Below are positions 48,362-61,905 of a DNA stretch of 64,000 nt, piece by piece (position 1 is the stretch's first letter; each line of letters opens with the position of its first letter). The position numbers were made by a program, and so were the translations under genes. The notes below the pieces were generated by a model. It saw only the letters and a program-made list of their open reading frames with translations, was not told where the DNA came from and did not search any database. Source of the DNA: an uncultured delta proteobacterium (GTDB taxonomy: Bacteria; Desulfobacterota; RBG-13-43-22); contig CAVUPH010000026.1 in the NCBI GenBank assembly GCA_963743305.1, forward strand, positions 1 through 64,000, in the 5' to 3' direction.

Positions 48362-50566
48362 TTACTGGAATCGAGTCTGAAGCGCCTTATAGTTCCAGCC
48401 GAAGGAGACCAGCAGCTCCTCCCCGGCCTTGAGGAGCAGTTCGAGGTATTTCTTTCGATCGTAGGGTTCCTGGCCGGTCAGGAAGGGGGCGGGGACCACC
48501 CGCTCCTCGGGCAGGGCCGCCCCGCTGTCCCGCAGGAGAAAGGACACCCGCTGGCCGGGATGGAGGGTCAACCCCTCGGCCTCCAGTTGCTGGAGGGTCA
48601 GGGCCGACTGGGTAGCCACCCGGTACTGGTCCAGGGGACGGCTGGATCGGCGGGTGATGATCAGTTCCGTGGGGTGGACCCGTCCGTCTTTCAGCAGTCC
48701 GGCGTATTCGCCCAGACGGGTCAGCATTTCCGGCACCTGCTTTTCCAATGTCTGCCGGTCCCCGGCCCGGGCCATCCAACCCAGGAGTTCCTCCTGCACC
48801 TCCCGGACGAAGCGGGGGACGTCCTTGCGGCAGCGGGCGATCCCCCGGGTCTTGAGGGTCCCGTTTTGAAAGGCCCCGAAGTAGCGGTTGGCCACCGGAC
48901 GGCGCGGCTGGACCTTGGAAGGCAGGAAGACGATCCAGTGATAAATTCCCTCCAGACTTATGGGAACCTGGGTCTTTCGCTCGATTTCCTCAAGCAAAAT
49001 GTTAATGTCCCCTTCCGTCAGCCGCTCCCCCTGGAGCCAGAGGGAATCGGTCAGCCCGTGGAGGACCTGGTAGCCCCGGATCTCGGCGCACTCCTTGGCG
49101 ATCAGCAGCTTGTCCCGGCCGAAGGCGGTGATGGCCTCGTGGGCCTCGATCCGACCGAAGCGGGCGTTCTTGTAGCCCAGGTAGCCGAAGCAGGTGACCA
49201 GCACCCACTTCAACCCTTTCTGCAGGGCCTGATAAACGGCCTTCCGCGGATGCCCCTCCTTGATCCGGGCCTTGAGCTCGGTCCGCAGCTTCAGGATCGG
49301 CTCCAAGGTTTCAGGCACCAGGCCTCGACGGCGCCGACAGATATTGTAGCCCGCCTCCGGGACCACCGGTTCTGGGCAGCAGGAACATAGCATGGTTTCG
49401 GGCGAGATATTGTGCCGGACCATGATGGTGGGATACATGGAGGCATAGTCGATCTCGGCCACCCGCTCTCGGAGTCCGATCGGCGGCTGGAAGACCAGCC
49501 CTCCCTTGTCCGCAACCAGAAGGTCCCAGGCGGTCTTGAAGTCCTCGGGCCGCCCCTTTTTCCAGGGGATCAGGATTCCTTTTTGCACCGCCCGGTCGAG
49601 CTGCATGGAGGTGATGGCCGTGCCCGGCGAGGTCCGGGCCAGGGTCTGAACCGGGATCTTGGTCAGTCGCGCCAGAAAGATGGTTCCCTCCAAGCCGCAC
49701 TCCCCCTGGGTGAAGAAAAAGGAATTGTTCCGGTCGATGTGGAAGCGCCCGAAGAGGGGGAAGGCCGCGCCCTGGTAGGCAATCTGCCCGTAAGTAAAGT
49801 AGGAGCGCCCTTCCCCCACCCGCCGGCGCGGCGGAGGGTGGGGGTCCCGGTCCAGGACCAAAGGGATTTTCTCCTTCTCGGACCAGTGCCAGAGACAGGG
49901 AAAGATGCGTCCGTCCCCGTGTTGGGAGAGGAGGCAGTCGGGATCCAGGCGGGCTACGAGTTGGTTGAATTCGGTCAGCAGTTCGGCGGGAGTCAGGCCG
50001 TCCAGTTCGAAGACCCGGTCCTCATAAGTCACCTGCAGGCTGTTGCCCCGCTCCAAAGGGATCTGGGGGTGTTTAGCCAGGGTGAGCTCAACAACTTTTA
50101 GAGAAGGAATCGGAGCATCCGGGTCCCAGGGGGAATGGAGGACCTTGAGACCCCGGAGCTGATTGCGCTCCCATTCGAACTCGCAGAAGGCCAGGGGGAA
50201 GAGGCCCCGCTCGTAGGCGTAGTATTGGGGAACGGCCAGGTCGCAGTTGTAAAAGGTGATCCCGCCGGCCCAGTCGGCCAGGCGCCGCTGGATCTCCGGG
50301 AGCTTCTGCAGGGCCCGGACCTCCAGCTCGAAAACCGGCATTGCTTTGCCGCTCCAGAACTCAGTCCGCCTGGTCCAGCCCGTGCGCCGCAGATACCGGC
50401 CAAGCCCTCTTTCCAGGGCGCTCAGGGCGGACCGGGTCCCCTGGGCGTAAAAGCGGTAGTCGAAATAATCGGTCAGGCAGAGCATCTCCCCGCCCGTTAA
50501 TCGAAACCAGAGGACCATCACGTCCTCGCGCACGTACAAGTCGAAAAGCCAGCCTTTGGCGATCAT
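48362..50566 (-). CDS. polB: Family B DNA polymerase, PolB2-like
   Basis: Motif A DYASMYP, motif B KWVLVTCFGYLG, motif C HGLTDSL (first Asp of DTDS replaced), NRYFG and KTRG; exonuclease motifs look eroded. Confidence 0.9.
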   Translation of the reverse strand: MIAKGWLFDLYVREDVMVLWFRLTGGEMLCLTDYFDYRFYAQGTRSALSALERGLGRYLRRTGWTRRTEFWSGKAMPVFELEVRALQKLPEIQRRLADWAGGITFYNCDLAVPQYYAYERGLFPLAFCEFEWERNQLRGLKVLHSPWDPDAPIPSLKVVELTLAKHPQIPLERGNSLQVTYEDRVFELDGLTPAELLTEFNQLVARLDPDCLLSQHGDGRIFPCLWHWSEKEKIPLVLDRDPHPPPRRRVGEGRSYFTYGQIAYQGAAFPLFGRFHIDRNNSFFFTQGECGLEGTIFLARLTKIPVQTLARTSPGTAITSMQLDRAVQKGILIPWKKGRPEDFKTAWDLLVADKGGLVFQPPIGLRERVAEIDYASMYPTIMVRHNISPETMLCSCCPEPVVPEAGYNICRRRRGLVPETLEPILKLRTELKARIKEGHPRKAVYQALQKGLKWVLVTCFGYLGYKNARFGRIEAHEAITAFGRDKLLIAKECAEIRGYQVLHGLTDSLWLQGERLTEGDINILLEEIERKTQVPISLEGIYHWIVFLPSKVQPRRPVANRYFGAFQNGTLKTRGIARCRKDVPRFVREVQEELLGWMARAGDRQTLEKQVPEMLTRLGEYAGLLKDGRVHPTELIITRRSSRPLDQYRVATQSALTLQQLEAEGLTLHPGQRVSFLLRDSGAALPEERVVPAPFLTGQEPYDRKKYLELLLKAGEELLVSFGWNYKALQTRFQ

Positions 50567-50595
50567 GGGATTGAGGATAGAGTACTTGTCGGGAC

Positions 50596-50749
50596 TTAGA
50601 ACCCGTCAAGAAATAAGCTGTACAATACCGCTAATATCTCCGTTCATGCTGAGCCTGTCGAAGCATGGCCGTATCGTTCACCCTTCGACCAGCTCAGGGC
50701 GAACGGTTGTAGGGCCGCTTTGTCAAGGTTATTTGTTTACAGATCCTTA
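50596..50749. mobile_element. MITE-like element, copy 1 (imperfect ~21-nt TIRs, internal hairpin)
   Basis: Left end ttagaacccgtcaagaaataa versus reverse-complemented right end taaggatctgtaaacaaataa; internal ccgttcatgctgagcctgtcgaag...cttcgaccagctcagggcgaacgg. Confidence 0.7.
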
Positions 50750-50826
50750 GTACTTTGTTGTCAATTGGAAGATAATCTTCCAATTGACAGGGAAAGATTT
50801 AGGTAACCTAACCGATCTGGAGTCGG

Positions 50827-50979
50827 TTAGAACCCGTCAAGAAATAAGCTGTACAATACCGCTAATATCTCCGTTCATGCTGAGCCTGTCGAAGCATTGC
50901 CGTATCGTTCACCCTTCGACAAGCTCAGGGCGAACGATTGTAGGGCCGTTTGTCAAGGTTATTTGTTTACAGATCCTTA
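50827..50979. mobile_element. MITE-like element, copy 2 (near-identical direct repeat)
   Basis: Differs from copy 1 at about 4 positions. Confidence 0.7.
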
Positions 50980-51023
50980 TCGGCAGAAAGCCTGAAGCCA
51001 ACTATTTCCCTCCTAAAGCCTGG

Positions 51024-51649
51024 TTAATTCTTCTTTACCGGTTGCCGGATGATCGTCCTTAGCTTTTCCGGGGCGGTCTTGCGGGGATCGCTCAAATAAA
51101 TCTCGTGGTGTTTGCCGGCCAACCGGTAGCCGTGGTCCCTGACGAAAGCATGGATTCTTTGAATAGTCGCATGTTCTTCCGCAAAAGGCCCGACATACAA
51201 TATCTGGGCGGACAGCCCCTCGGCCAGGCTTTCCCAGCGAACCCGGGCCAGATGGGGGAGAGGCTTTTTCTTTTTCACCTGCTCCAGCGCCGGACCGAAT
51301 AGCTCCGGGCTGACCATGCTCCGGCTGCCGAATCATCAGCGTCCACTGCCAGCGGTCTTTATCCAATCTCTCCGGATTGAAGGCCTCCATATCCTCGGCC
51401 CACCAGAGCCCTTCCAGGGGCAGCACGGCATAGTCGATCCCCTGCCCTTTCTTGACCATAAACTTGAGCGTATAGGACAGGCTGTACAGAGCCTCCACCG
51501 CCGCCTGGAAATCCGGTGACGGTGTTGGGATCCCCGGCCCCGTCGGCCATGAGGAAGTTCATGCCCGGCACCTCCACCAGCGCCACTTCTTTGGCGGACG
51601 GGGCGTAGAGGTGCTTTTGGTCCTTTTTTAGGTCTATCTTTAAACCCAT
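51024..51649 (-). CDS. GyrI-like small-molecule-binding protein, frameshifted
   Basis: KIDLKK..DGAGDPN, PLEGLWW, WTLMIRQP and HHEIYLSDPRK..LRTIIRQP. Confidence 0.85.
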
Positions 51650-51662
51650 CTAATGCCCCCCA

Positions 51663-52571
51663 TTATTGGAGCCGTTTTCTGGCCGGTTTGACCGAATACA
51701 GGGCCTGTTCTTCCTTGATCAGGCAAGCTTTTTCAGTCTCGATCTTTTCAAAAATAAACTGGGTCTTCAAAAATAAATTCATATCCTCCGCTTTCAAGTA
51801 CCCGGCCGCCATTCGACAATATTCCGGATCAATTTCCACACCGATACTGTGGCGGGCATTTCGAAGAGCTGCCACCATAGTGGTGCCGGAACCGCAAAAA
51901 GGATCCAAAACGGTATCCCCCGTGAAAGAAAACATCCGCACCAGTCGGGAGGCCAGTTCAAACGGAAAGGGGGCGGGGTGATTACGAGTTGAGGCGCCGG
52001 GAACATTCCAGATTTGTTGAAACCAGCGGTCGAATTCATCCTTATTGATCCGACTGGCCTCGCGCTGGGCATTGGTCGGTTTCCGGCATCCTCCCGGTTT
52101 CCGCTGCATGAGAATGAACTCCATGTCGTTTTTAATGATGGCGTTCGGCTCGTAGGGTTTACCGAGAAATTTGGACCCGTTTGTCACCTCGTAGGAGGCA
52201 TTGGCGATTTTATGCCAGACAATCGGGTTCAAGTTATCAAAACCAATCCGTCGGCAACTGACGCAGATATCCGCGTGGAGCGGAAAAACGAGGTGCCGGC
52301 CGAAATTCCGCCGGGCTACACACACGTCGCCGACCACACAGACCAGTCGGCCTCCGGGGACCAGGACCCTATAAATATGTCGCCAGACCTTCTCCAATTC
52401 TCCCAAAAACGCTTCATAATCCTCGATGTGTCCGAGTTGATCTGAATTTTCGTTGTAGCGCTTGAGGTTCCAATAAGGTGGGGAGGTGACCACCAGATGC
52501 ACCGACTCGTCTTCAATAAAAGATAAATCGCGCGCATCGCCGTTGATTAACCGGTGGATCGTCTTTCCCAT
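51663..52571 (-). CDS. Site-specific DNA methyltransferase (N4-C/N6-A, beta class)
   Basis: VTSPPY near the N-terminus, HPAPFP and DPFCGSGTT. Confidence 0.92.
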   Translation of the reverse strand: MGKTIHRLINGDARDLSFIEDESVHLVVTSPPYWNLKRYNENSDQLGHIEDYEAFLGELEKVWRHIYRVLVPGGRLVCVVGDVCVARRNFGRHLVFPLHADICVSCRRIGFDNLNPIVWHKIANASYEVTNGSKFLGKPYEPNAIIKNDMEFILMQRKPGGCRKPTNAQREASRINKDEFDRWFQQIWNVPGASTRNHPAPFPFELASRLVRMFSFTGDTVLDPFCGSGTTMVAALRNARHSIGVEIDPEYCRMAAGYLKAEDMNLFLKTQFIFEKIETEKACLIKEEQALYSVKPARKRLQ

Positions 52572-52580
52572 AGTTTTAAA

Positions 52581-52636
52581 CTAGACTCGCCTGGCTGGCT
52601 TGACCAAAGCCTGTTCTTCTTTGCCCAGACAAGCCC
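52581..52636 (-). pseudogene. Stub matching the 3' end of the adjacent methyltransferase
   Basis: ACLGKEEQALVKPARRV* versus ACLIKEEQALYSVKPARKRLQ*. Confidence 0.65.
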
Positions 52637-52644
52637 GTATGGAC

Positions 52645-53072
52645 GTCGCCAGTCGAGTCGTAATCTTGTCGTAAGTTGTGTCACAAGATTGTCGCAAGTT
52701 CAGTCCTTATCCTTCGCCCGGTAAACGAGCTTGTTGGTCGCTCCCTCCGAAACCAACAACTCCATTTTCAAGGTATTCGGAGACCAATTCGAACGCCTTC
52801 CGATAGTTCAACAGCTCCCGCACGTCGTCCGGATGGGCCTCGGGAACCGAGTCCCCCGCAAGCAATCGTTCGGCTTGGTCCAGGGTCAGGCACGTTCCCT
52901 CGATGTGCGTGGTATGGTGCGCTTCCAGGATCAAAGCCCGACGGCCCATTTCACGCACCCAGGCTTCGGACAATGCCGCGGCCTCCAGGAATCCCCGAGC
53001 CCGCTCGATACGGGTCAACCCGGCGGTGATCCGGTTGGAGATCGTAAAAATAGGTTTGAAGTTCTTCTTCAT
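52645..53072 (-). pseudogene. Fic-family protein remnant (N-terminus only, catalytic HPFxxGNG absent)
   Basis: [34 protein letters not shown], then breaks off. Confidence 0.75.
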
Positions 53073-53120
53073 TTCACGCCTCCGAGGATTCCTAATATCG
53101 CCGAACCGACCCTTCCCTTT

Positions 53121-53255
53121 CTATCTTCTCCGGCATTTTTGTAGATTTCGATAAGCAATCCCTGGCCGCCACCCAAACCGCTGATGTGCCGGCATGATCT
53201 GCCGGTAGTCCTGCTGGATCTGCTTCTCCCGCAGCGCCAGATCGGAGATGCCCAT
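53121..53255 (-). pseudogene. Stub matching the 5' end of the DUF1156 methylase
   Basis: MGISDLALREKQIQQDYRQIMPAHQRFGWRPG versus IADLALREKQIQQNYRPIIAVHKWFARRPG. Confidence 0.75.
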
Positions 53256-53482
53256 CAAGCGGAAACGGCCTGACAAATGACCGGCCGGTACTTGGGCGGT
53301 GGAATGGGTTTCCCTTCAGCACGGGCCGCCTGCAGCCACAGCGCCTTGGCCTTCTGCACCTCCCGCAAGGCATCGTCCGGCGTTTCTCCGAAGGCGGAAC
53401 AGGCATCGAGATCGGGAATATCCGCGATATATCCGCCATCATCTTCCGAATAGAAAATATGGTATGTGGGGTTAATCATCAT
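53255..53482 (-). CDS. hicB: Orphan HicB-family antitoxin
   Basis: YSEDDGGYIADIPDLDACSAFGETPDDAL...GKPIPPP. Confidence 0.85.
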   Translation of the reverse strand: MMINPTYHIFYSEDDGGYIADIPDLDACSAFGETPDDALREVQKAKALWLQAARAEGKPIPPPKYRPVICQAVSA

Positions 53483-54195
53483 ATGGCCCGAGGAACCGCT
53501 CCCCGTTGAAATGGATCAAATGGGTCGGAGACTCGGCAATCCAGACCTCCGTTTCCCATGAAATATCATCAAGATATCTTACCATGGCGTGTCGATCAAG
53601 AAATGCGGTGACATAAACCAGCCCGACATTAGATCCGGAAAATAATTTCTTTAGTTCTTGTCGCCGTTTGGGGTTAACGGGTCCATGGCTGGTCACGGCT
53701 TCGATCAATACGAGCCATTTTCTTCGTATGTGGTATACGACGACATCCGGCATCTTACCGTGTTCCTCGATCCGGATTCCGAAATTTCTGAACGAATCCG
53801 AATCGAAATAGGCCCATTTCCTTTGGGTGTCACCAACATAAATAATCTGTCCGCCGGGAGTAAAAAGCGGACAGAACTCATCAATTATCTTCTTAACCAG
53901 TATATTATGCCCACCCGCTGAAAGCCGGATCTCTTTCCCGTGTGCCAGTACGATTGGGATACGATGCATTTCCCGCTCACGGGCATGCGGCGAAAAACTC
54001 CATCATTGGGGTAATTCCCATCAACGGGCTACCCGCCTTGTCCCATGGATCCCCAGGTTTTAGATCCAACAACGACAACAATGTCAATGCCGAACGTTCG
54101 TTTTGCTGCTGCCTGGGAAGTCCGAGAGCTTTTAAAATTTCAAGGGCTTCCCGCAGTTTCTGCTCAGCTTTGTCGACTTTTCCCCTTCTACCCAT
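53472..54195 (-). pseudogene. BsuBI/PstI-family restriction endonuclease with an internal deletion
   Basis: N-terminal QQNERSALTLL..GITPMMEF abuts IRLSAGGHN..YVGDT..HGKMPDVV..EAVTSHGP..WETEVW out of frame; the middle segment is missing. Confidence 0.8.
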
Positions 54196-55710
54196 TAGGT
54201 CCGCACTCCTTATCTAAAATTGCATCTATTGCCTCTTGGTCAGGGAGCCGTTGGTCAACATGATTGCCCATCCGGATCAACTGTTCACGAGTTGGATACC
54301 GCATCTTCCGCAGGTCCGTAGCATTTACCTGGGTATGCCCACTGAATAGCCGAAAGTACCGGTCAAATAAAGAGGAGTTAAGATAAACAGCCAGTCCCTT
54401 CGCCAACCTTGGAGACAAACCGATACCTCCGGTATGGAAGTAGTTTAAATGGTTCTCGAAAGCCACCAGCGGCGATTGAACCCGGTGGGGGTCGTAGATG
54501 GCCGCTACCACCCGTCGCCGCTCTTCCTTGGACGTAAATCGTTTGGTTAACACGTAATACCCACTTTCAATCAACAGATCACGAGTTCGATCGGATAATG
54601 CTACCGCATTCGGCTTTTTTCCTGATTGGCTCGGCCAACGTATAAAACCGTTTTCAAAATGACACGAAAAAATCAACGGCATCGTTCCTTCTTCTGGCAT
54701 AGCCCGCAGGTATTCTCGCGCCCGAAAATCTACCAAGCGCCCGGTAGAGACCTCTATCCCCAATTCGGGGAGTGAAGTCCGAAAGCCCCTCATCAGCTCT
54801 ATGACCTGATCATCGGTGTCGGCAAGGACGAGATGGATAAAAGCATCTTTGTCCTCGGGCATAACGAGACGTTCGTATAAAATCCGCCGCGGCTTTGTGT
54901 TGTCAAAATCCAACCCTTCAGAGACAGAAACGTTTACCTGCTTTGGTTTGCGTCTGTTCCTCGTAGCATAGAAAATAATATTTTCTTGAAGAACTTCATC
55001 GTCGCCAAAAGCTTTTTTCCTCGACTCGAAAACGTGAAGCCGTCGTAGGGCCATAAGTTCCAAAAAGGCCATGCGAAAACGCCGGAAATAAGGGCCGTTG
55101 CAGAAACTTCGAGGAGTGATCGCCACCAGTTCGCCATTCGGTTTCAGCATTCGTGCAGCCAACCACACAAACGCCGCGTATAAGTTCGATACCTCTATTC
55201 CCGCGGCATTTAACAGCCTTCGTGTAACCGAATCACCATTGATTTTCCTGTAGGGTGGATTAAGTATCGCGTGGGTAAACTTTTCTTTTTGGACAGCAAA
55301 CAGGCCTTCGTCAATCGCCTCCACACCGGCAACGATAAAATCTTCATCTAAAATAGATCCATGAAATGGAACGTTAACCAGATTTACAGGACAGTTCACA
55401 TCGTAGCCATCGTATCCTTAAGGTACGGAATTATCTGGGCATCGTTCTCGTAAGCAACGACTTCAATCTTCTTGGGCTTTGACTTTCTCGAAATTAGCGA
55501 CTCTATAGCCGCCGCGAGCAGAACCCCTGCACCTGCACCTGGATCCAAAATTCGCGCCTCTTCTACCTCTTTCTCAAACAAAGAGCCCATGAACTGAGCG
55601 ATAGCGGTTGGGGTGAGAAACTGGCCAATTGGGGATCGCTCGGACTTGCACTTCCTCCCATTAAAGGACGTTCGCACGTCATCAAGTATATTTGTGACCA
55701 CTATTCTCAT
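54188..55710 (-). CDS. BsuBI/PstI (Eco57I-like) N6-adenine methyltransferase, one frameshift
   Basis: GQFLTP, LDPGAGAG, NPPY, PRSFCNGPYF, ENHLN and GHTQVNATDL. Confidence 0.9.
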
Positions 55711-55734
55711 ATTTTATAGGACCTTTAAACCATC

Positions 55735-57869
55735 AAGCGGTAAAACTTCTCCCCTGGTCGTCAGGATCATTTTCTTCATATCCCCCGAATTTCCGAAGCC
55801 ATTCGACGATCGCCAGCATCTTTTAGGCCACTGGAGCTTTTTTGTCCCACTCTTTTCTCAAATGCCAAACGGCCAGGCGAATCAGATGGCCGTAGGTGAC
55901 ACAACGGGCGTCTCCGGGGGTAGGCTTTACCCCGCCCTCCCTGAGTCGGGCCAGGTCCTCGGCAACCAGATCGGCAACCCCTTCGATCGAATCGGGCAGC
56001 CATTTTCTGGAAATGGTTCCGGTAGACCGGCAGACAAAAACGGTGTCGATGATAGACGACCCCGTGCCGTTGATGTGAATGGACGCCCCCATTTCCGCCG
56101 GGCAGGGCAGTGAAGCGGAGCAGGTCAACCCGGCATCGAGTATGGCGACGGCTACCGGGGAATAGGCGTTGAGGTCATTGTGGTGGTACGTGAAAGCCAG
56201 GGGGGACCCCGGCTTCAAGGCCGCTGCCATGCGCTGATAAACGACGGAAAGACCCTGGGTAAAATGCTCCAGGCCCCGACCCATATCCTCGTTTCCGGTG
56301 AGTTCCTGGGAATTCCGGGTCGATTCCCGCTCGAAGGCCTTAACCTTTTCGCCCACCAGACGCCGCAGCCAGACATAGCAGAAATCCATCAGTTCCGCAT
56401 ATTGCACATTACCAAAATACGGAGGATCGGTGAAAACGGCATCCAGGGAGGCCTTCGGCAGCTTGACATCAGCCGCATCCCGACATTGGATGTCCACCAG
56501 TCGTCGCCCCTGGTTTGATCGCCGTTAGGATGATCACCGATCCATTCGCCTTTGATGGGCACCATTTCCTTTCGAAATCCATGGTGCCTGATCTCAAAAG
56601 GGGCATCACAGTAGGCCTTGGCCTTACGAAACTTATCGGTGATGTTGGCCCAGCCGCCGCTTCCCACACACATATTCTTGTTGGGATCCCGAATACCCAT
56701 AAAATTGGACTCACATTGAATAAGCCCCACCGGAAAGCCGTGGACGGAGAATATATCCAGTGATTTCAAGACCATCGTGTCGTAGCGGCACAGCATGTTC
56801 TGATAGCGCAACAAGTCGGAGAGATTCGTTGCTAGGGCATTACGGACGCGTTCATTCGCTGTTTTGGAAATAATCCGCGCCGAAAGTTCAAGCCCCAGGA
56901 GCTGTCGGGCGTTGAACATCTCCCGGTAGTGTCGGTATCCCCACCGATGCAGGCGATTGGTTTCATCGCCCGACGGAATTTCATCGTCCGGGACGAATCG
57001 CGGGCGCAATCCCTTCCATCGTTCCTCGGCTTCCGCCACCCGCTTCAGGTCTGATCCATCGGGGACCTTAAAGAACCGTCCCGCGTGACCTTTTTTGCAG
57101 GACGGACAGTGATATTCCATGGCGAAAAGCCGGTGCCGCGGCGCTCCCAGGCTGCTGTTCGGGTAAAGATTGTCGGTTTCACAATGAGGGCAACGGCACC
57201 GGTTTCGGCCGGCAGGACCATGCATCGACAGCCCGGTGCCGCAATGCCGGCAGTTGCCCGGATTTATCCGGTCTCCGGTCTCCGTCAATTGACCGCAAGC
57301 AGAGCAGACAAACACATTTTTGGGATGCCGTCTGATCGGCGGAAAGCAGGTAGCCAGGGAAAAGATCGATGTCCTTCCGACACTTACGACAGGAAGTCAC
57401 TTTGACCCACAAAAAGTATTTTACGGGCGTCCTGCTTTCCACAAAGAACGCATTCCGTTTGATACAGATGTCCGATTTCGTTTTCCAGCCTTCGGTTCAG
57501 CGATTCGACGGCATGATCATAGGCCCCCAGGTCCAGATGCTCGATTTCCTGTTTGACGATCCAATACGACATGGGGTTGATATCGAAGCCGGTCACGTGA
57601 CAACCCAAGCGGTTCGCTTCCAGAAGAGGCGTCCCGCCTCCCATGAAAGGATCGGCAACCCGGAGGTCTTTCAAATCGTTCGCCCGGTAAAAGGCCTCGC
57701 GAAGCGGACGGTCCGAGAATTCGGACAGCAACAGCCCTCGGAAGAGGGTCCCCGGCCGCCGCGCGAACCACTTGTGCACCGCAATGATCGGCCGGTAGTT
57801 CTGCTGAATCTGCTTCTCCCGCAAGGCCAGATCGGCGATGAAGGGTATGTCGAAGTTTTTTTCTATCAC
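55735..57869 (-). CDS. DUF1156-type adenine-specific DNA methylase with Zn ribbons, frameshifted
   Basis: HKWFARRP, DPFMGGGT, several CxxC motifs and TDPPYFGNVQYAEL. Confidence 0.85.
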
Positions 57870-58303
57870 TGCAGGTTCTCCAGATCAGCCAGGTCCTGCA
57901 GTCTCCCAGCCGCCCTCTTGGTTTTCTTCAGATTTTCCAGATCGATGAAATATACGGGGACGTCGTCGATTGTCACTACCACCCGGGCCGCGTAGGAACG
58001 GCCAAAATCAACGCCCGGCGGCGAAGTGATCAGGTCGATGCGGTTGGGCGGGTAGCCCAGTTGGATAATCTGTTCCGGTTCCAGGAAATCCCCCGCCGTC
58101 AGGTCCAGGGACCCGAAACCGAACTGGACCAGTGCCCGCATCAGCTTTGCCGCGTTATCCGGGTCCCGCTCGACCCACACGTCCAGGTCCTTGGTGTAGC
58201 GGGGATAGCCGTGCAGCGCCACCGCGTAGGCACCGATCACCAGGTAACGGACGCCGTTATCGTTTAACGACCGAATAAACTCTTTGAAATCCGGGTTCAG
58301 CAT
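57866..58303 (-). CDS. Nucleotidyltransferase-family protein (DUF6036-like)
   Basis: YLVIGAYAV..PRYTKDLD..K.AAGRLQDLADL. Confidence 0.85.
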   Translation of the reverse strand: MLNPDFKEFIRSLNDNGVRYLVIGAYAVALHGYPRYTKDLDVWVERDPDNAAKLMRALVQFGFGSLDLTAGDFLEPEQIIQLGYPPNRIDLITSPPGVDFGRSYAARVVVTIDDVPVYFIDLENLKKTKRAAGRLQDLADLENLQ

Positions 58304-58454
58304 CGTATTTCCACCTGTGGAATTCCTGCCGGATCTGCTCCAAGGCGGCCAGCCGGCGGGCATAGGGCTGGGTCTGCCAGTAATCAAAATCGGTCTTTTG
58401 TTCGCCGATTTTCACTTTGGTACAGACCTTGGCAATGGAGGGAGACGGTTCCAT
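58257..58454 (-). CDS. Small partner protein of the nucleotidyltransferase (putative TA pair)
   Basis: DFDYWQTQP..RLAALEQIR..FQRVYSVVKR; overlaps the downstream gene. Confidence 0.7.
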   Translation of the reverse strand: MEPSPSIAKVCTKVKIGEQKTDFDYWQTQPYARRLAALEQIRQEFHRWKYDAEPGFQRVYSVVKR

Positions 58455-58567
58455 ATTTAATTTCCTGATACTTCTTTTCTTTGTTTATAACTATCACATT
58501 TTACAAAAATAATCCAATAGACTCCCAAGGCAACCATTCCCTAAAAGCGGGGGATATGCACTCTTGA

Positions 58568-58600
58568 TTTTATCAAAATTATGTGCTAATTTTGATAAAA
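58568..58600 (+). promoter_or_regulatory. Perfect 14-bp inverted repeat, probable Phd autoregulatory operator
   Basis: TTTTATCAAAATTA-tgtgc-TAATTTTGATAAAA lies just upstream of the antitoxin RBS. Confidence 0.7.
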
Positions 58601-58617
58601 AAAGCGAGGGAATAAAT

Positions 58618-58887
58618 ATGCCCATTATCAAACCCATCTCCGCCCTGCGCAACAAGACCCGGGAAATCGCTTCTCTCTGTCATCAAGAAGATGAGCCGGT
58701 CTACCTGACCACCAACGGGGAAGGCGACCTGGTAGTCATGAGCATGGAACACTACGAGCACCTCCGGGCACGGGTGGATCTCTTCGAAAAACTAGCCGTC
58801 GCCCAGGGGCAATCGGCCTCCGACGACAAGGGGTTTACCCACACTCAGGTGATGAAAAAGCTTCGGCAGCGTCTGCATGGCCGGTAA
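58618..58887 (+). CDS. Phd/YefM-family antitoxin
   Basis: IKPISALRNK..EPVYLTTNGEGDLVVMSMEHYE. Confidence 0.88.
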   Translation: MPIIKPISALRNKTREIASLCHQEDEPVYLTTNGEGDLVVMSMEHYEHLRARVDLFEKLAVAQGQSASDDKGFTHTQVMKKLRQRLHGR

Positions 58888-58987
58888 GGTTTCCCTTCGT
58901 TATCTGCCGATAGCCGTTGATGATTTGACGGCCATCGAAATTCACCGCGTCGTCCACGGCTCCCGCAATCTGACCGATATCATCTAA
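58877..58987 (+). pseudogene. RelE/ParE toxin reduced to 36 aa by an in-frame internal deletion
   Basis: MAGKVSLRYLPIAVDDLTA/IEIHRVVHGSRNLTDII*: both termini kept, core absent. Confidence 0.75.
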
Positions 58988-59253
58988 AAAGCAGTCCCTT
59001 CTTTTCGTACCACTTCAAGTTTCCCCCGCAGCTCCGCCAGTTCTTTCTCCTGCTCCAAAAGAATGGAGACCAGAATGGTCTCCAGGGGCCAGGGCCGGGA
59101 GGCGTAGCTGCCGGCCTGGACGTGGATCCGGGCCCGGTCGAAGAGCCGGTCCAGGACCCGCTGGTCTTCCCGGCGCAGGGCCCGGCGGAATTTCTTCCAG
59201 TCCTCATATTCCCGCTCCAGGGCCTGGCTGAATGGCAGTACCGTCCTTCCCAT
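58984..59253 (-). CDS. Small helical PolB2-associated protein (PPB2-like)
   Basis: MGRTVLPF..W.KFRRALRREDQ..DRLF..AR.H..P.ETILVSILLEQ; follows the RadA-like gene. Confidence 0.75.
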   Translation of the reverse strand: MGRTVLPFSQALEREYEDWKKFRRALRREDQRVLDRLFDRARIHVQAGSYASRPWPLETILVSILLEQEKELAELRGKLEVVRKEGTAF

Positions 59254-59276
59254 ACACTCCTCAAAGTCGAAATTGC

Positions 59277-59374
59277 CCGCAAAGACGCAAAGGACGAAAA
59301 GAAGGAATTTTCTCCGGCTGTCGCCGGAGAAAAAATTCCTTTGCGCTCTTTGCGCCTTGAGCGAAGCGGGCGGT
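59277..59374. repeat. Inverted CGCAAAG-type repeat with an inner hairpin
   Basis: ccgcaaagacgcaaaggacgaaaag...tttgcgctctttgcgccttgagcgaagcgggcggt. Confidence 0.6.
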
Positions 59375-59410
59375 AAAAATTTTCGTCCGCGGATGTCTGC
59401 GGCTAAAAAA

Positions 59411-60001
59411 CTACCCTCTGCGGGGCACCACGGCGGCTTGGTGCTGCAGCATCCCCTCGATGCCCTGCTCGCCGTAGCGCACCCGGATCACCATTTCCAC
59501 CCGGGCGGCCAGTTCCCGGCCGTAAAAAAGGTTCTTGACCCGCGACGACACCGGCCCCTGGAAAAGGAATACCCCCCTCCCCCGCCGCCCCAGAACGGCC
59601 AGGGAGGCCGCCACTCGTTTAAAAAGGTTCCGGCGCTCCGTCAAGGCCACCTGATCGTCGTAGAACAGGGCGCAAGGGCCGAGGACGAAGAGGGGTTCCC
59701 CCGGCCCGGTCGCGGGCAGGGTCTCACAGAGCAGGGTGACCAACTGATGGCAGGTAAAGGCCCGGCTCAGACGGATACGCTCGAGCAGCGCCCGGGGGTC
59801 CAGCTCCCGGTAGCGGCTCATGCGGGCCACCAGGTAAGGGTCGAAGGACTGGGCGGCATCCACCAGGGTCACGGGACTCCCCTGCAGGGCGACCCGACCG
59901 ATGAGGTAGGCGGCCAGGCGGGGCATGGCCTCCCCGAAAAAAAGGATGCTCCGGCCGGTAAGGGCCAGACGGGTAATTTTTTGGAAAGGCAGTAAATCCA
60001 T
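59411..60001 (-). CDS. Inactive RadA/RecA-like protein (iRadA/ImuA-like)
   Basis: VDAAQSFDPY..LERIRLSRAFTCHQL matches a RadA core pattern; no Walker A GKT. Confidence 0.8.
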   Translation of the reverse strand: MDLLPFQKITRLALTGRSILFFGEAMPRLAAYLIGRVALQGSPVTLVDAAQSFDPYLVARMSRYRELDPRALLERIRLSRAFTCHQLVTLLCETLPATGPGEPLFVLGPCALFYDDQVALTERRNLFKRVAASLAVLGRRGRGVFLFQGPVSSRVKNLFYGRELAARVEMVIRVRYGEQGIEGMLQHQAAVVPRRG

Positions 60002-60192
60002 GGCTCAAAAGACGCGGGGCGCAGAGCGCAAAAAAAACTCCAAAGCTGTCGAGAACGAAACAAGAAATCTCGTTGAAGCTTCCAAAAACCGAGATCCTAC
60101 GCGGAGTCTACCCCGCGCCGAGATCGTCTTCTCTTCGCCAGGATGACTTCCGGCAGTTACGCTCTGCGCCCTGCGCTCAGCGCTTTGCGTCT

Positions 60193-60798
60193 TTATGGTA
60201 CCGGCCGGTAGATCCCGATCACCTGCCCGACGACCCCCAAATCGGCCAGATTTTTCCGTTCGATGGTCAAGGGCTCGAATTCCGGATTGTCTCCTTTGAG
60301 GACCACCCGATCCCCTTCCCGGTGCCAGCGCTTCAAGGTCACCTCGTTATCCAGGCGGAAGACCCCCACCGCCCCTTCAGGTAGGCGCTCCTGGCGGCGG
60401 ACGATCACCTGGTCTCCCGAGAGAATGGTGGGACGCATACTCTCGCCCTGGACTCGCAACAGAAAGACCTCCTCCCCTTTGGCCCAGTCCGCCGGCAGGG
60501 TTACCTGGTCTTCCGCTTCTTCGAGGACCAGCCGGGGGCCGCCGGCGGCAACGGCCCCGTACCGTGAAATGGTGCGCAGCGGACCAGGAACCGGCTTCAA
60601 GCTCAGGCCCCGGGAGCGGTTCGGCTCCCGCTTCAGACGGCCCTTCCGAATCAGGGCCTTCAGGTGGTCCTGGACAGAGCCCGGGTAGATCCGGAAGTGG
60701 GCGGCCACCTCCCGCCGTGAAGGCGGATACCCGTGCCGTTCCTGGAAATCCCGGAGGTAATCCAGGATCTCCTGCTGGCGGGAAGTCAATTCATCCAT
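60193..60798 (-). CDS. lexA: LexA repressor
   Basis: LTSRQQEIL..GYPPSRREV, VAAG cleavage site, GESM (Ser) and TLKR (Lys). Confidence 0.93.
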   Translation of the reverse strand: MDELTSRQQEILDYLRDFQERHGYPPSRREVAAHFRIYPGSVQDHLKALIRKGRLKREPNRSRGLSLKPVPGPLRTISRYGAVAAGGPRLVLEEAEDQVTLPADWAKGEEVFLLRVQGESMRPTILSGDQVIVRRQERLPEGAVGVFRLDNEVTLKRWHREGDRVVLKGDNPEFEPLTIERKNLADLGVVGQVIGIYRPVP

Positions 60799-60810
60799 GG
60801 GTTATCCGAT

Positions 60811-60834
60811 ACCATACATTTGTATGGTTGTCAA
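60811..60834 (-). promoter_or_regulatory. Candidate LexA box ACCATACA-N2-TGTATGGT directly after a TTGACA -35
   Basis: Perfect 8-bp inverted repeat, 12 nt upstream of the lexA ATG. Confidence 0.75.
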
Positions 60835-60862
60835 GGAGAAATCAAATTTTTCTGGAGGGCGC

Positions 60863-61020
60863 GTATTAAAACCCCCCAGGCCCGGGGCGGGAACCCCGAA
60901 GTATGGAAATAACAGATCCCCAGTCATTGCGAGGAGAGAAGCGACGAAGCAATCCCCGAGGCAGTTTACAAACCTTTCCTATACTCGACCGGGGGATTGC
61001 TTCGCTTCGCTCGCAATGAC
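60863..61020 (+). repeat. 50-nt module (copy 4) plus a GTCATTGCGAG...CTCGCAATGAC palindrome
   Basis: gtcattgcgaggagagaagcgacgaagcaatcccc...ggggattgcttcgcttcgctcgcaatgac. Confidence 0.78.
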
Positions 61021-61068
61021 ATCGGTCTTGGAGACCGAGTCGGTCGGAGTGCTTATTGGCCTGGAAGG

Positions 61069-61905
61069 CTATTTTTGCATTAACCAGTCGATGATCAGCC
61101 CGGCGGTTTCTTCGGGGAGTTCTTCCTGAGGGGCATGGCCGCAATGGGGGATAATGCGCAGGGTGGAATGGGGGAGATCCCGGTCCAAACGCCGGCCGAC
61201 GGGGAGTTTTACCCAGGGGTCATCCTCCCCCCAGATCAGCAAGGTGGGGATATCAATGGCGGGAAGACGTTGGTCGTACCGGCTCAAAATTTTGAAATCC
61301 AGAGAACGAACCAGTGCGATCTGGGCCTCCAGGCAGCCGGGGGACTTCAGCCGTTCATAATAGGCATCGATCCTTTCATCGCTGACCCGCTCCTGGTGGC
61401 AAAAGGCCTGTTTCATGGCCAGCTTGATCAGCCAGCGTTTGAAAACGATTCTGGACAATTCCTTCGAAAAAGGCAGTTTGGCCAAGCGAAAAACCCAGGG
61501 AAGTTTTTTTAAATAGGCCGCCGCGTCGATCAAAACCAGCCGATTGATCCGGTCCGGGTTTTCCAGGGCCAGGAGCAGCGCCAGCGAGCCTCCCAGCGAA
61601 TTGCCCACAAAAATAACCGTCCGCAGTTCCAAGGTTTCCAGCCAGCGATCGATCTCGTCTCTCAGGGTAAACAAATCATATTCGGAAGCGGCCGGCTTGT
61701 CCGACCAGCCGGAACCCTTCAGGTCGAGGGCATAGACCCGGTAGCCTGCCGCCTGTAGCAGCGGGGCCAGCGCTTCCCAGGAGTAGGTCGAGGAACCCAG
61801 GCCATGCAGCAGGAAGATCGTTTGCCCCGCTGCCGGGTATTTCAGGTAGTGATAGTTCACTCCCCGGATGGTAATAAATTGACTTTGGGGATGGTTCTTT
61901 TTCAT
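61069..61905 (-). CDS. Alpha/beta hydrolase
   Basis: LLHG, DLKGSG, GNSLGG, WGEDD and CGHAPQEE. Confidence 0.92.
   Translation of the reverse strand: MKKNHPQSQFITIRGVNYHYLKYPAAGQTIFLLHGLGSSTYSWEALAPLLQAAGYRVYALDLKGSGWSDKPAASEYDLFTLRDEIDRWLETLELRTVIFVGNSLGGSLALLLALENPDRINRLVLIDAAAYLKKLPWVFRLAKLPFSKELSRIVFKRWLIKLAMKQAFCHQERVSDERIDAYYERLKSPGCLEAQIALVRSLDFKILSRYDQRLPAIDIPTLLIWGEDDPWVKLPVGRRLDRDLPHSTLRIIPHCGHAPQEELPEETAGLIIDWLMQK

Follow-up and report, generated by a model that had tools for sequence, protein, structure and literature searches.

The stretch of DNA analysed here, referred to as the window, comprises 64,000 nucleotides (positions 1 to 64,000 of contig CAVUPH010000026.1, assembly GCA_963743305.1) from an uncultured delta proteobacterium. 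On its minus strand, it carries the genes of a PolB2 mutasome, which encode LexA, the RadA-like protein iRadA, the small partner protein PPB2 and the family B polymerase PolB; however, PPB2 and polB are separated by an island of other genes. We propose, with a probability of about 0.72, that this mutasome is controlled by LexA and that the PPB2-polB junction is a long-lived gene-turnover slot in a family of uncultured Thermodesulfobacteriota. In such a slot, cargo genes would be gained, shuffled, decayed and deleted via recombination anchored in the conserved flanking mutasome genes. LexA would repress the promoter of lexA-iRadA-PPB2 through one operator, while polB would be left without an operator of its own, and the damage control of the holoenzyme would persist mainly through the LexA-controlled partner subunits iRadA and PPB2, to which any read-through across the island would add. 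The fact that iRadA and PPB2 stay behind the LexA operator would explain why the PPB2-polB junction, and not another, tolerates insertions. The four mutasome genes are intact and under selection, and their products are still predicted to assemble.

Mutasome genes flanking the gap

The genome of the window (G000) is a 4.9-Mb metagenome-assembled genome (MAG) in 43 contigs with a completeness of 90% and a contamination of 5.7%. It is part of a set of 21 family genomes, which are mostly fragmented MAGs and, as kin, not independent of each other. The lexA gene (60193-60798; this and all other features of the window lie on the minus strand unless stated otherwise) encodes a protein of 201 amino acids with the Pfam domains LexA_DNA_bind (9.9e-21) and Peptidase_S24 (1.5e-27). 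Its translation retains the motifs VAAG, GESM and LKR, which we take, by E. coli LexA, to be the cleavage site and to contain the catalytic serine and lysine, respectively. The second gene, iRadA (59411-60001), encodes 196 amino acids with a RadA/Rad51-core fold. A Pfam scan gives no match for iRadA; a 29-row profile of the protein matches RadA (4a6p) with an E-value of 1.8e-11, and the AlphaFold model (pLDDT 90.2, pTM 0.87) retrieves RadA, RAD51 and DMC1 as the top Foldseek matches (E about 1e-10, TMq 0.62-0.74). The protein corresponds to the RadA/Rad51 ATPase core without the N-terminal domain and without Walker A, and GK[ST] is absent throughout its translation. PPB2 (58984-59253) encodes 89 amino acids, starts with MGRT and contains KFRRALR; in 29 of 29 aligned homologues, MGRT and the residues F22, L26, R27, D30 and P56 are invariant.

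The polB gene (48362-50566) is intact and encodes a PolB2-type polymerase of 734 amino acids (PF00136, 2.7e-27; NF004416, 3.8e-118). Motif C of the polymerase reads HGLTDS, in which D507 is invariant and L505 occupies the position of the first Asp in an 11-row alignment. At the ExoI motif, D-I-E of P. abyssi PolB (4flt) is replaced by V-L-E in the profile consensus, as seen in one alignment, and the corresponding stretch of G000 itself reads V-L-H in the translation; judged by these residues, the proofreading exonuclease site is lost. The original prediction had placed lexA, a Walker-A-less RadA-like gene and a small MGRT protein between 60798 and 58984, and a polB with a GLTDS motif C on the same strand beginning at 50566. 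The coordinates, strand and identities of all four could be confirmed, those of the polymerase through its Pfam and NF004416 matches and its translation.

This gene set is that of the published PolB2 mutasome and is itself already known. The sections of the study by Timinskas, Timinskas and Venclovas (2025, PMC11791011) used here describe the gene order iRadA-PPB2-PolB2 with lexA enriched beside the bacterial copies, a PPB2 with an N-terminal MGRT motif and a PolB2 whose first Asp is substituted and whose exonuclease site is dead, and they predict a contact of PolB2 and iRadA through a Rad51-like motif. The genes of the window agree with that description in their order and strand, the Walker-A-less RadA-fold partner, the MGRT partner, motif C, the dead exonuclease, the lexA neighbour and a predicted FxxA-like contact. 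In contrast to it, PPB2 and polB are 8,417 nt (50567-58983) and about ten open reading frames (ORFs) apart, and such a split is the rule in the whole family. Since 'interspersed' operon variants are allowed in the same sections, the missing adjacency lowers only the claim of a canonical operon.

Four genomes with a split operon (G000, G001, G002 and G007) were used to determine dN/dS. The resulting omega values are 0.10-0.16 for polB, 0.12-0.29 for lexA, 0.08-0.21 for iRadA and 0.08-0.19 for PPB2 at a dS of up to about 0.7, which indicates purifying selection on each of the four mutasome genes in the split state. A model of the PolB-iRadA complex reached an ipSAE of 0.78, compared to 0.43 for the best control; in the calibration of this score, 58 of 80 solved complexes and 2 of 110 mismatched pairs attained the mark, counts that are rough for the present case with its own alignments. 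Three runs share at least 97% of the contacts, and the pLDDT of the partner is at least 81. In the modelled interface, PolB residues 336-347, which include F343-K-T-A346, lie against residues 73-83 of iRadA, and invariant columns are found in both segments. FKTA (343-346) is thus predicted to be an iRadA-binding FxxA motif, in agreement with the Rad51-like motif proposed in PMC11791011. As a separate observation, the dS of PPB2 between G000 and G001 amounts to 0.61, whereas values of 0.21-0.35 were obtained for lexA, iRadA and polB of the same pair. This high value could be the trace of a recombination breakpoint at the border of the island, with the reservation that PPB2 is a short gene of 89 codons.

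The PPB2-polB junction and its cargo

For the comparison outside the family, the best 80 PolB2 loci were considered, with one genome per species and many phyla represented, and PPB2 was sought upstream of polB by an iterated profile search. PPB2 was found upstream on the same strand in 66 of the 80 loci, and two archaeal MAGs are among the best relatives. This association lends indirect support to a placement of the polymerase in the PolB2 clade and not in PolB1, PolB3 or Pol II. After omission of L053, a duplicate of the G001 locus, the gap between PPB2 and polB is at most 650 nt in 64 of 65 loci; the median is 68 nt, and 42 gaps are within 100 nt. The outlier is a locus of a Rokuibacteriota MAG (L118) with a gap of 2,290 nt, in which iRadA and PPB2 are separated by a methylase-like gene, and PPB2 and polB by a GAF-HD gene on the opposite strand; it is too isolated for generalising. 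Nine of the 14 loci without PPB2 upstream have less than 2 kb of upstream sequence, and in one of these (L121) the partner genes are on the opposite strand. The remaining five have 2.4-10 kb upstream (L058, which belongs to the family of the window, L073, L075, L086 and L120). A contiguous locus is also present in three genomes of the same phylum that belong to other families.

Within the family, PolB2 is found in 16 of the 20 other genomes and PPB2 in 18 of 21, including G000. Only two of these 18 loci have polB directly adjoining PPB2 (G005 and G010), with the PPB2 stop codon 0-8 nt from the polB ATG, and one (G009) has a gap of 0.5 kb, which holds a 182-nt DUF1156 relic. Six islands are spanned on one contig and measure 2.2 kb (G014), 5.5 kb (G001), 8.4 kb (G000), 8.6 kb (G016), 8.8 kb (G002) and 10.4 kb (G007). 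In six further genomes (G006, G011, G013, G015, G017 and G019), PPB2 is followed by island cargo and polB is not reached on the contig, and in two (G012 and G020), at least 10 kb after PPB2 contain neither polB nor cargo recognised by our queries. The PPB2 of G004 is located on a tiny contig, which is too small to be classified.

At the far end of this series, polB has left the locus. A second lexA directly precedes a polB of a separate clade in G020 (L034), G018 (L045) and G019 (L047), with neither iRadA nor PPB2 between them. The second LexA shares 61-64% of its residues with the LexA encoded in the operon of that genome; its operator is of the CTGTAC type and not of the CCATAC type in G020 and G018, and in G019 it is degenerate and polB is frame-broken. 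On long contigs of G020 (L134) and G019 (L135; 16.8 kb), lexA-iRadA-PPB2 is not followed by polB for 16-17 kb downstream. This looks like a complementary loss between two mutasome operons, in which polB was kept under a LexA.

It is highly improbable that the island of the window was misjoined into the operon during assembly. The contamination of this MAG would be in line with such an artefact, as would the public sequencing runs listed for it, each of which contains at most 0.14 of the sampled words, with no contig spanning the stretch. However, single contigs of eight other assemblies show cargo immediately after PPB2 or immediately before polB. The complete island is spanned in five of them (G001, G002, G007, G014 and G016), and in G002 the contig concerned measures 486 kb and has the flanking genes in common with G000, from ccsA to the AMP ligase gene. 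Contigs of related strains were also considered as assembly support; they are short pieces, none of which crosses a junction, and they provide no evidence for or against the assembly.

The cargo differs strongly between the genomes. VapBC-like pairs are found in three islands, together with a methylase-nuclease fusion, GMT-wHTH, DUF5131, ASCH, DUF1156 and GyrI-like genes in G007, an XhoI endonuclease with its methylase and DUF1156 in G016, and an intact Fic in G014. G001 carries ParE-Phd, ASCH, a methylase, MNT-HepT and a GyrI-like gene; G002 contains a Ser/Thr kinase, another methylase, HEAT-repeat proteins and DUF1156 pieces; and G006 harbours glyoxalase, cupin, Fic, two AAA_15 ATPases, DUF2130 and a Type I specificity subunit. 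G000 and G002 are close relatives with a polB dS of 0.18 and a common DUF6036-DUF1156 block, yet blocks of 4-5 kb beside it differ. In the PolB tree, the contiguous G010 is sister to the split G014, and the relic-bearing G009 is sister to G016. The synteny check that had been suggested along with the prediction, contiguous relatives versus variable cargo, came out as expected: the junction is tight outside the family and carries differing cargo within it. The original idea of an insertion hotspot is supported by this synteny, although it is better read as an old island with continuing turnover. The DUF1156 methylase is common to three genera, and its dS (0.49-0.83) is comparable to that of polB (0.58); with cargo of this age, an old island with ongoing turnover fits better than repeated fresh insertions. 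'Hotspot' then stands for a long occupancy with continuing gain, loss and decay, and need not mean many independent first insertions.

A very unlikely alternative is that a site-specific integrative element, either integron-like or dependent on a tyrosine recombinase, targets the PPB2-polB junction, as is the case at rulB. The use of the same junction across the family would fit this mechanism, a precedent in a Pol V-type operon is given in the part of PMC4542609 used here, and a unique palindrome (50759-50789) is located at the polB-side border. On the other hand, no integrase, transposase or recombinase family was found among the island ORFs covered by the mobility-gene scan, which comprised part of them; no bounding direct repeats were noticed when the borders were compared, a comparison made without a dedicated repeat search; and the island borders vary between genera. 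A recurrent segment of 90-180 nt (57687-57868 and again 53159-53250, also present in G009 and G016) was considered as an att site or cassette boundary and rejected, as it encodes the N-terminus of DUF1156 and corresponds to the 5' end of that gene.

Several points weigh against the proposed turnover slot. In nine of the 18 genomes with PPB2, the PPB2 contig either does not extend to polB (eight) or is too small to be classified (one). The cargo common to three genera (DUF1156, the N4/N6 methylase, Fic and GyrI-like genes) could stem from a single old insertion. In G000, five single-base frame breaks, two each in the GyrI-like and DUF1156 genes and one in the PstI-type methylase, may be assembly errors. 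The shared orientation of the cargo counts for less than it seems to, because local genes are mostly on the minus strand anyway; this strand dominates from about 33.5 to 63.7 kb of the window. Finally, recA (PF00154) was not found at an E-value of 1e-10 in G000, which is no evidence of absence in a genome of 90% completeness.

The island of the window itself has a GC content of 0.47-0.56, compared to 0.63-0.64 in polB and lexA-iRadA. Next to PPB2, an orphan Phd/YefM antitoxin gene is located on the plus strand (58564-58887; TIGR01552, 1.7e-05), which is convergent with the operon and the only supported plus-strand gene of the gap. In G001, it is part of a Phd-ParE module (ParE 3.8e-17, Phd 8.3e-11), of which the ParE gene is deleted in G000, with about 192 nt gone. 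It is followed by an ORF of 65 amino acids and a DUF6036-type nucleotidyltransferase ORF (57866-58454; DUF6036 3.4e-04, under the Pfam cut-off), for which PADLOC reports nothing. The region is 90% identical in G002, and the two ORFs may form a toxin-antitoxin-like pair. The adjacent DUF1156-type DNA methylase-like gene (55823-57869) is distributed over three ORFs in different frames (57384-57869, 56389-57315 and 55823-56497), while the gene is intact with 743 amino acids in G007 and 736 in G016. The omega of the pieces compared with G007 is 0.04-0.16 at the dS of 0.49-0.83 given above, which suggests that the frame breaks are either very recent or not real. A plus-strand ORF at 57369-57995 was rejected as a gene, as it represents an antisense frame of the DUF1156 gene.

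Restriction-modification (RM) genes follow. A PstI-type (N6_Mtase/Eco57I) methylase (54188-55710) consists of two ORFs of 104 and 403 amino acids in different frames with a 4-nt overlap and matches PADLOC MTase_II (3e-140) over profile positions 112-486 of 494. Of a PstI/BsuBI-type endonuclease, a remnant is left (53472-54195) with 72 amino acids of the N-terminal HTH part and 165 amino acids of the catalytic part; about 80 amino acids of the N domain are gone. The profiles are covered at positions 2-59 of 140 for the N domain and 1-154 of 154 for the catalytic domain, and PADLOC REase_II (1.6e-73) matches at positions 154-316 of 317 only. Further towards polB lie a HicB-like antitoxin ORF of 75 amino acids (53255-53482; UPF0150 8.3e-06 and HicB_lk 1.7e-05, both just below the Pfam cut-offs), a second relic of the DUF1156 5' end of 92 nt (53159-53250) and an N-terminal Fic/SoFic relic of 121 amino acids (52707-53072; Fic_N 5.3e-07; PADLOC SoFic 1.1e-06, positions 25-109 of 361). 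The catalytic core of Fic is deleted, with about 680 nt fewer than in G014, and intact Fic proteins have 349 amino acids in G014 and 362 in G006. An N4/N6 DNA methylase of 302 amino acids (51663-52571) is intact and has no endonuclease partner in G000; it is 86% identical to the methylase that adjoins the XhoI endonuclease in G016. The GyrI-like small-molecule-binding gene (51013-51649) has two 1-nt insertions in the alignment with G001 and G007, and its pieces are without a Pfam match in G000, whereas the intact homologues match PF06445 with 3.3e-14 (G007) and 1e-11 (G001). Two copies of a MITE-like dispersed repeat of 155 bp (50827-50979 and 50590-50752), which has 39 blastn matches genome-wide, complete the gap.

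With PADLOC matches to MTase_II (1.4e-68 and 3e-140), REase_II, SoFic, DUF1156_MTase and HmaB, and with the Phd and HicB-like antitoxins, the gap shows the clustering of anti-phage genes that characterises a defence island. A complete known defence system could not be recognised, as the endonuclease and Fic are truncated, ParE is deleted and two methylases are frame-broken, and the only clearly intact defence-type gene is the 302-amino-acid N4/N6 methylase. The RM, toxin-antitoxin (TA), Fic and GyrI-like genes that had been predicted between PPB2 and polB are thus present as families; however, Fic is reduced to its relic, the PstI-type RM genes are truncated or frame-broken and the GyrI-like gene is frameshifted. 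The 'defence island' of this window is largely wreckage. The truncated endonuclease, the truncated Fic, the ParE deletion and the DUF1156 relic cannot be sequencing noise. The five single-base breaks, which might be noise, are located near 51520 and 51315 in the GyrI-like gene, near 57380 and 56500 in the DUF1156 gene and at 55397 in the PstI-type methylase. In contigs of related strains, the additional base at 51520/51521 is missing, and a further C is present at 56506.

LexA operator and expression of polB

The lexA promoter (60806-60834) consists of the -35 hexamer TTGACA (60829-60834), a 17-nt spacer and the -10 hexamer TATCGG (60806-60811). The predicted LexA operator (60812-60827), the 16-nt palindrome CCATACAAATGTATGG, is located inside the spacer. 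The lexA ATG follows 7 nt past the -10 hexamer, so that the lexA mRNA is probably leaderless, and this spacing is kept in nearly all family members. Of 14 operon-type lexA genes in the family, 12 have the identical 16-mer embedded in their promoter in the same way; the two exceptions are G005, which has a variant of the CTGTAC type, and G013, in which no operator was recognised. With a LexA that has both the DNA-binding and the S24 domain, and with a palindromic operator in the lexA promoter itself, this locus has the sequence features of an SOS unit. The core CATACN4GTATG occurs a single time in the 4.9-Mb genome. When the genome was searched for perfect palindromes of 16 nt that have an AT-rich spacer and the core [TA]AC-N4-GT[AT], eight sites were obtained, one of which is the lexA operator, and no LexA box was found upstream of the one Y-family polymerase gene of G000. 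No comparable LexA box is present within the islands or before polB in any split locus scanned; the nearest thing to it is a near-match about 200 nt upstream of the solo polB of G020. From these scans, LexA seems to regulate its own cassette exclusively, with the proviso that degenerate sites would escape them.

Upstream of the lexA promoter, positions 60830-61068 contain a hairpin-forming dispersed repeat with 178 blastn matches genome-wide, and the depth of aligned metagenome contigs climbs to 335-667 in this bin. The alpha/beta-hydrolase gene beyond it (61069-61905) is whole in G000, while only residues 1-66 and 199-275 are matched in G002 and only residues 225-278 in G001, which indicates that the lexA-proximal flank also varies within the genus.

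How polB is expressed from behind the island can be envisaged in two further ways. In the first, lexA-iRadA-PPB2, the island and polB form one long SOS operon, in which a transcript of about 12.5 kb starts at the LexA-controlled promoter; the cargo would be damage-induced, and polB would be under LexA control by read-through only. We regard this arrangement as possible but doubtful. The cargo had been described as nearly all co-oriented, and 39 of 43 family-assigned genes in seven islands are indeed on the operon strand, with the exceptions all belonging to the Phd(-ParE) module of genus g1; most of the flanking genes, however, share this strand. In G007 and G016, whose islands are intact, the cargo is densely packed and ORFs overlap. 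The similarity between genomes upstream of polB ends at the ATG, without a conserved promoter or Shine-Dalgarno sequence. Consensus scans for terminators and promoters were judged against shuffled sequence, and terminator-like sites were not enriched (21 versus 18.7 +/- 4.2 in the shuffles). Where polB is physically separate, in G020 and G018, it sits right behind a lexA of its own with an operator, which suggests that LexA control of polB is selected. Against read-through stands the convergent phd gene directly after PPB2, and a terminator-like hairpin with an 11-bp stem and a T-rich tail, which is terminator-like on both strands, is located in the spacer between iRadA and PPB2 (59308-59333). 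Two structured repeat copies precede polB. Furthermore, untranslated stretches of a transcript should provoke Rho termination, and the frame breaks, if real, would leave such stretches.

In the second, polB is uncoupled from LexA: an own, LexA-independent promoter would be located in the 450 nt upstream of polB, which would have been rearranged by the two repeat insertions, and the island would be inert filler. This can be entertained tentatively, though on balance it is not favoured. Each copy of the 155-bp repeat carries a promoter-like TCGACA-17-GATATT, which in one case is some 70 nt away from the ATG; promoter-like sites as a whole, however, are not enriched (10 versus 6.5 +/- 2.8). Between the copies lies the 31-nt near-perfect palindrome (50759-50789), which occurs nowhere else in the genome and partly coincides with a -35-like TTGACA hexamer. 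In G002, the same place holds a decayed version without a repeat copy, but genera g2 and g4 have not retained the palindrome, and the repeat insertion parts the -35 hexamer from any -10. The palindrome may nevertheless be the operator of some regulator of polB. The missing LexA box near polB would agree with an uncoupled gene, as would the lexA-iRadA-PPB2 units of G020 and G019 without polB within 16 kb. Constitutive expression of an error-prone polymerase, on the other hand, is expected to be costly. At the polB starts of G000, G001, G002, G006, G007, G009, G014 and G016, a purine-rich Shine-Dalgarno sequence was not found, and the last 10-15 nt are pyrimidine-rich.

The original prediction suggested that the cargo may be SOS-induced or, alternatively, that polB has been uncoupled from LexA. 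In the strongest form of the former idea, the island would be wired into the SOS response through one damage-induced transcript of lexA-iRadA-PPB2, cargo and polB, and this wiring would be under selection across the family. We consider this unlikely. If it were true, translesion synthesis would be accompanied by the induction of anti-phage, toxin-antitoxin and methylase genes, and selection for the wiring would explain the near-constant co-orientation of the cargo and the occupancy of the slot across three genera.

Relation to known systems and significance

Variable genes between conserved ones are known from other contexts. According to the parts of the study by Oliveira, Touchon, Cury and Rocha (2017, PMC5635113) used here, hotspots exist without mobile elements, and homologous recombination is frequent at the flanking core genes. 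The slot described here resembles the hotspots of PMC5635113, as far as these parts describe them, in the turnover concentrated between conserved genes and in the lack of mobility genes among those seen, while recombination at the flanks is inferred for the slot. It differs from them in its location inside an operon of a complex that is otherwise translationally tight and in the almost wholly co-oriented cargo. For rulAB, the sections used of Rhodes et al. (2014, PMC4542609) describe integron-like elements that insert site-specifically within rulB, with a 3-bp direct repeat and three recombinases. Common to that example, as far as these sections go, and the PolB2 locus is a damage-inducible translesion-polymerase operon that serves as a landing place for variable accessory genes. 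The PolB2 locus, however, has its insertion between genes and an intact polymerase, and the ORFs scanned there yielded no recombinase.

Defence islands are clusters of restriction-modification, toxin-antitoxin and other anti-phage genes. The island shares with them the clustering of RM, Fic, toxin-antitoxin, DUF1156-type methylase and OLD/AAA_15-type ATPase genes, the variation between relatives and the deviant GC content; in contrast to them, most systems of the window are incomplete or broken, and no complete known system could be shown. The imuA-imuB-dnaE2 genes form a LexA-regulated cassette, which pairs a dead RecA-fold protein with an error-prone polymerase. The PolB2 locus is likewise a self-contained LexA-controlled cassette of a dead RecA-fold partner and an error-prone polymerase, but the polymerase belongs to family B and not to C or Y, and the small partner is a different one. 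We know of no report of a resident island within the imuA-imuB-dnaE2 cassette, though no search for one was made.

In the literature searched, no description of an island inside a PolB2 operon was found; the supplementary operon tables of PMC11791011, which were outside this search, may list some. The new part is the family-wide island slot within the operon, together with the series from contiguous to fully separated loci, neither of which is described in that literature. After rulAB, the PolB2 locus would be the second translesion-polymerase operon in which accessory genes settle. Whether defence genes nested in an SOS operon are induced by damage can be tested within this family, whose loci form a natural series: some are contiguous, one has a relic gap, others have small or large islands, and in some polB is at a separate site. 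The PolB2 mutasome is a predicted five-subunit complex whose genes are nearly always clustered. As this family demonstrates, the gene of the catalytic subunit can be moved by 2-10 kb or out of the locus over long evolutionary times without decay of the four genes. The regulation of the complex may run through the LexA-controlled partner subunits, as that of Pol V does through UmuD' and RecA.

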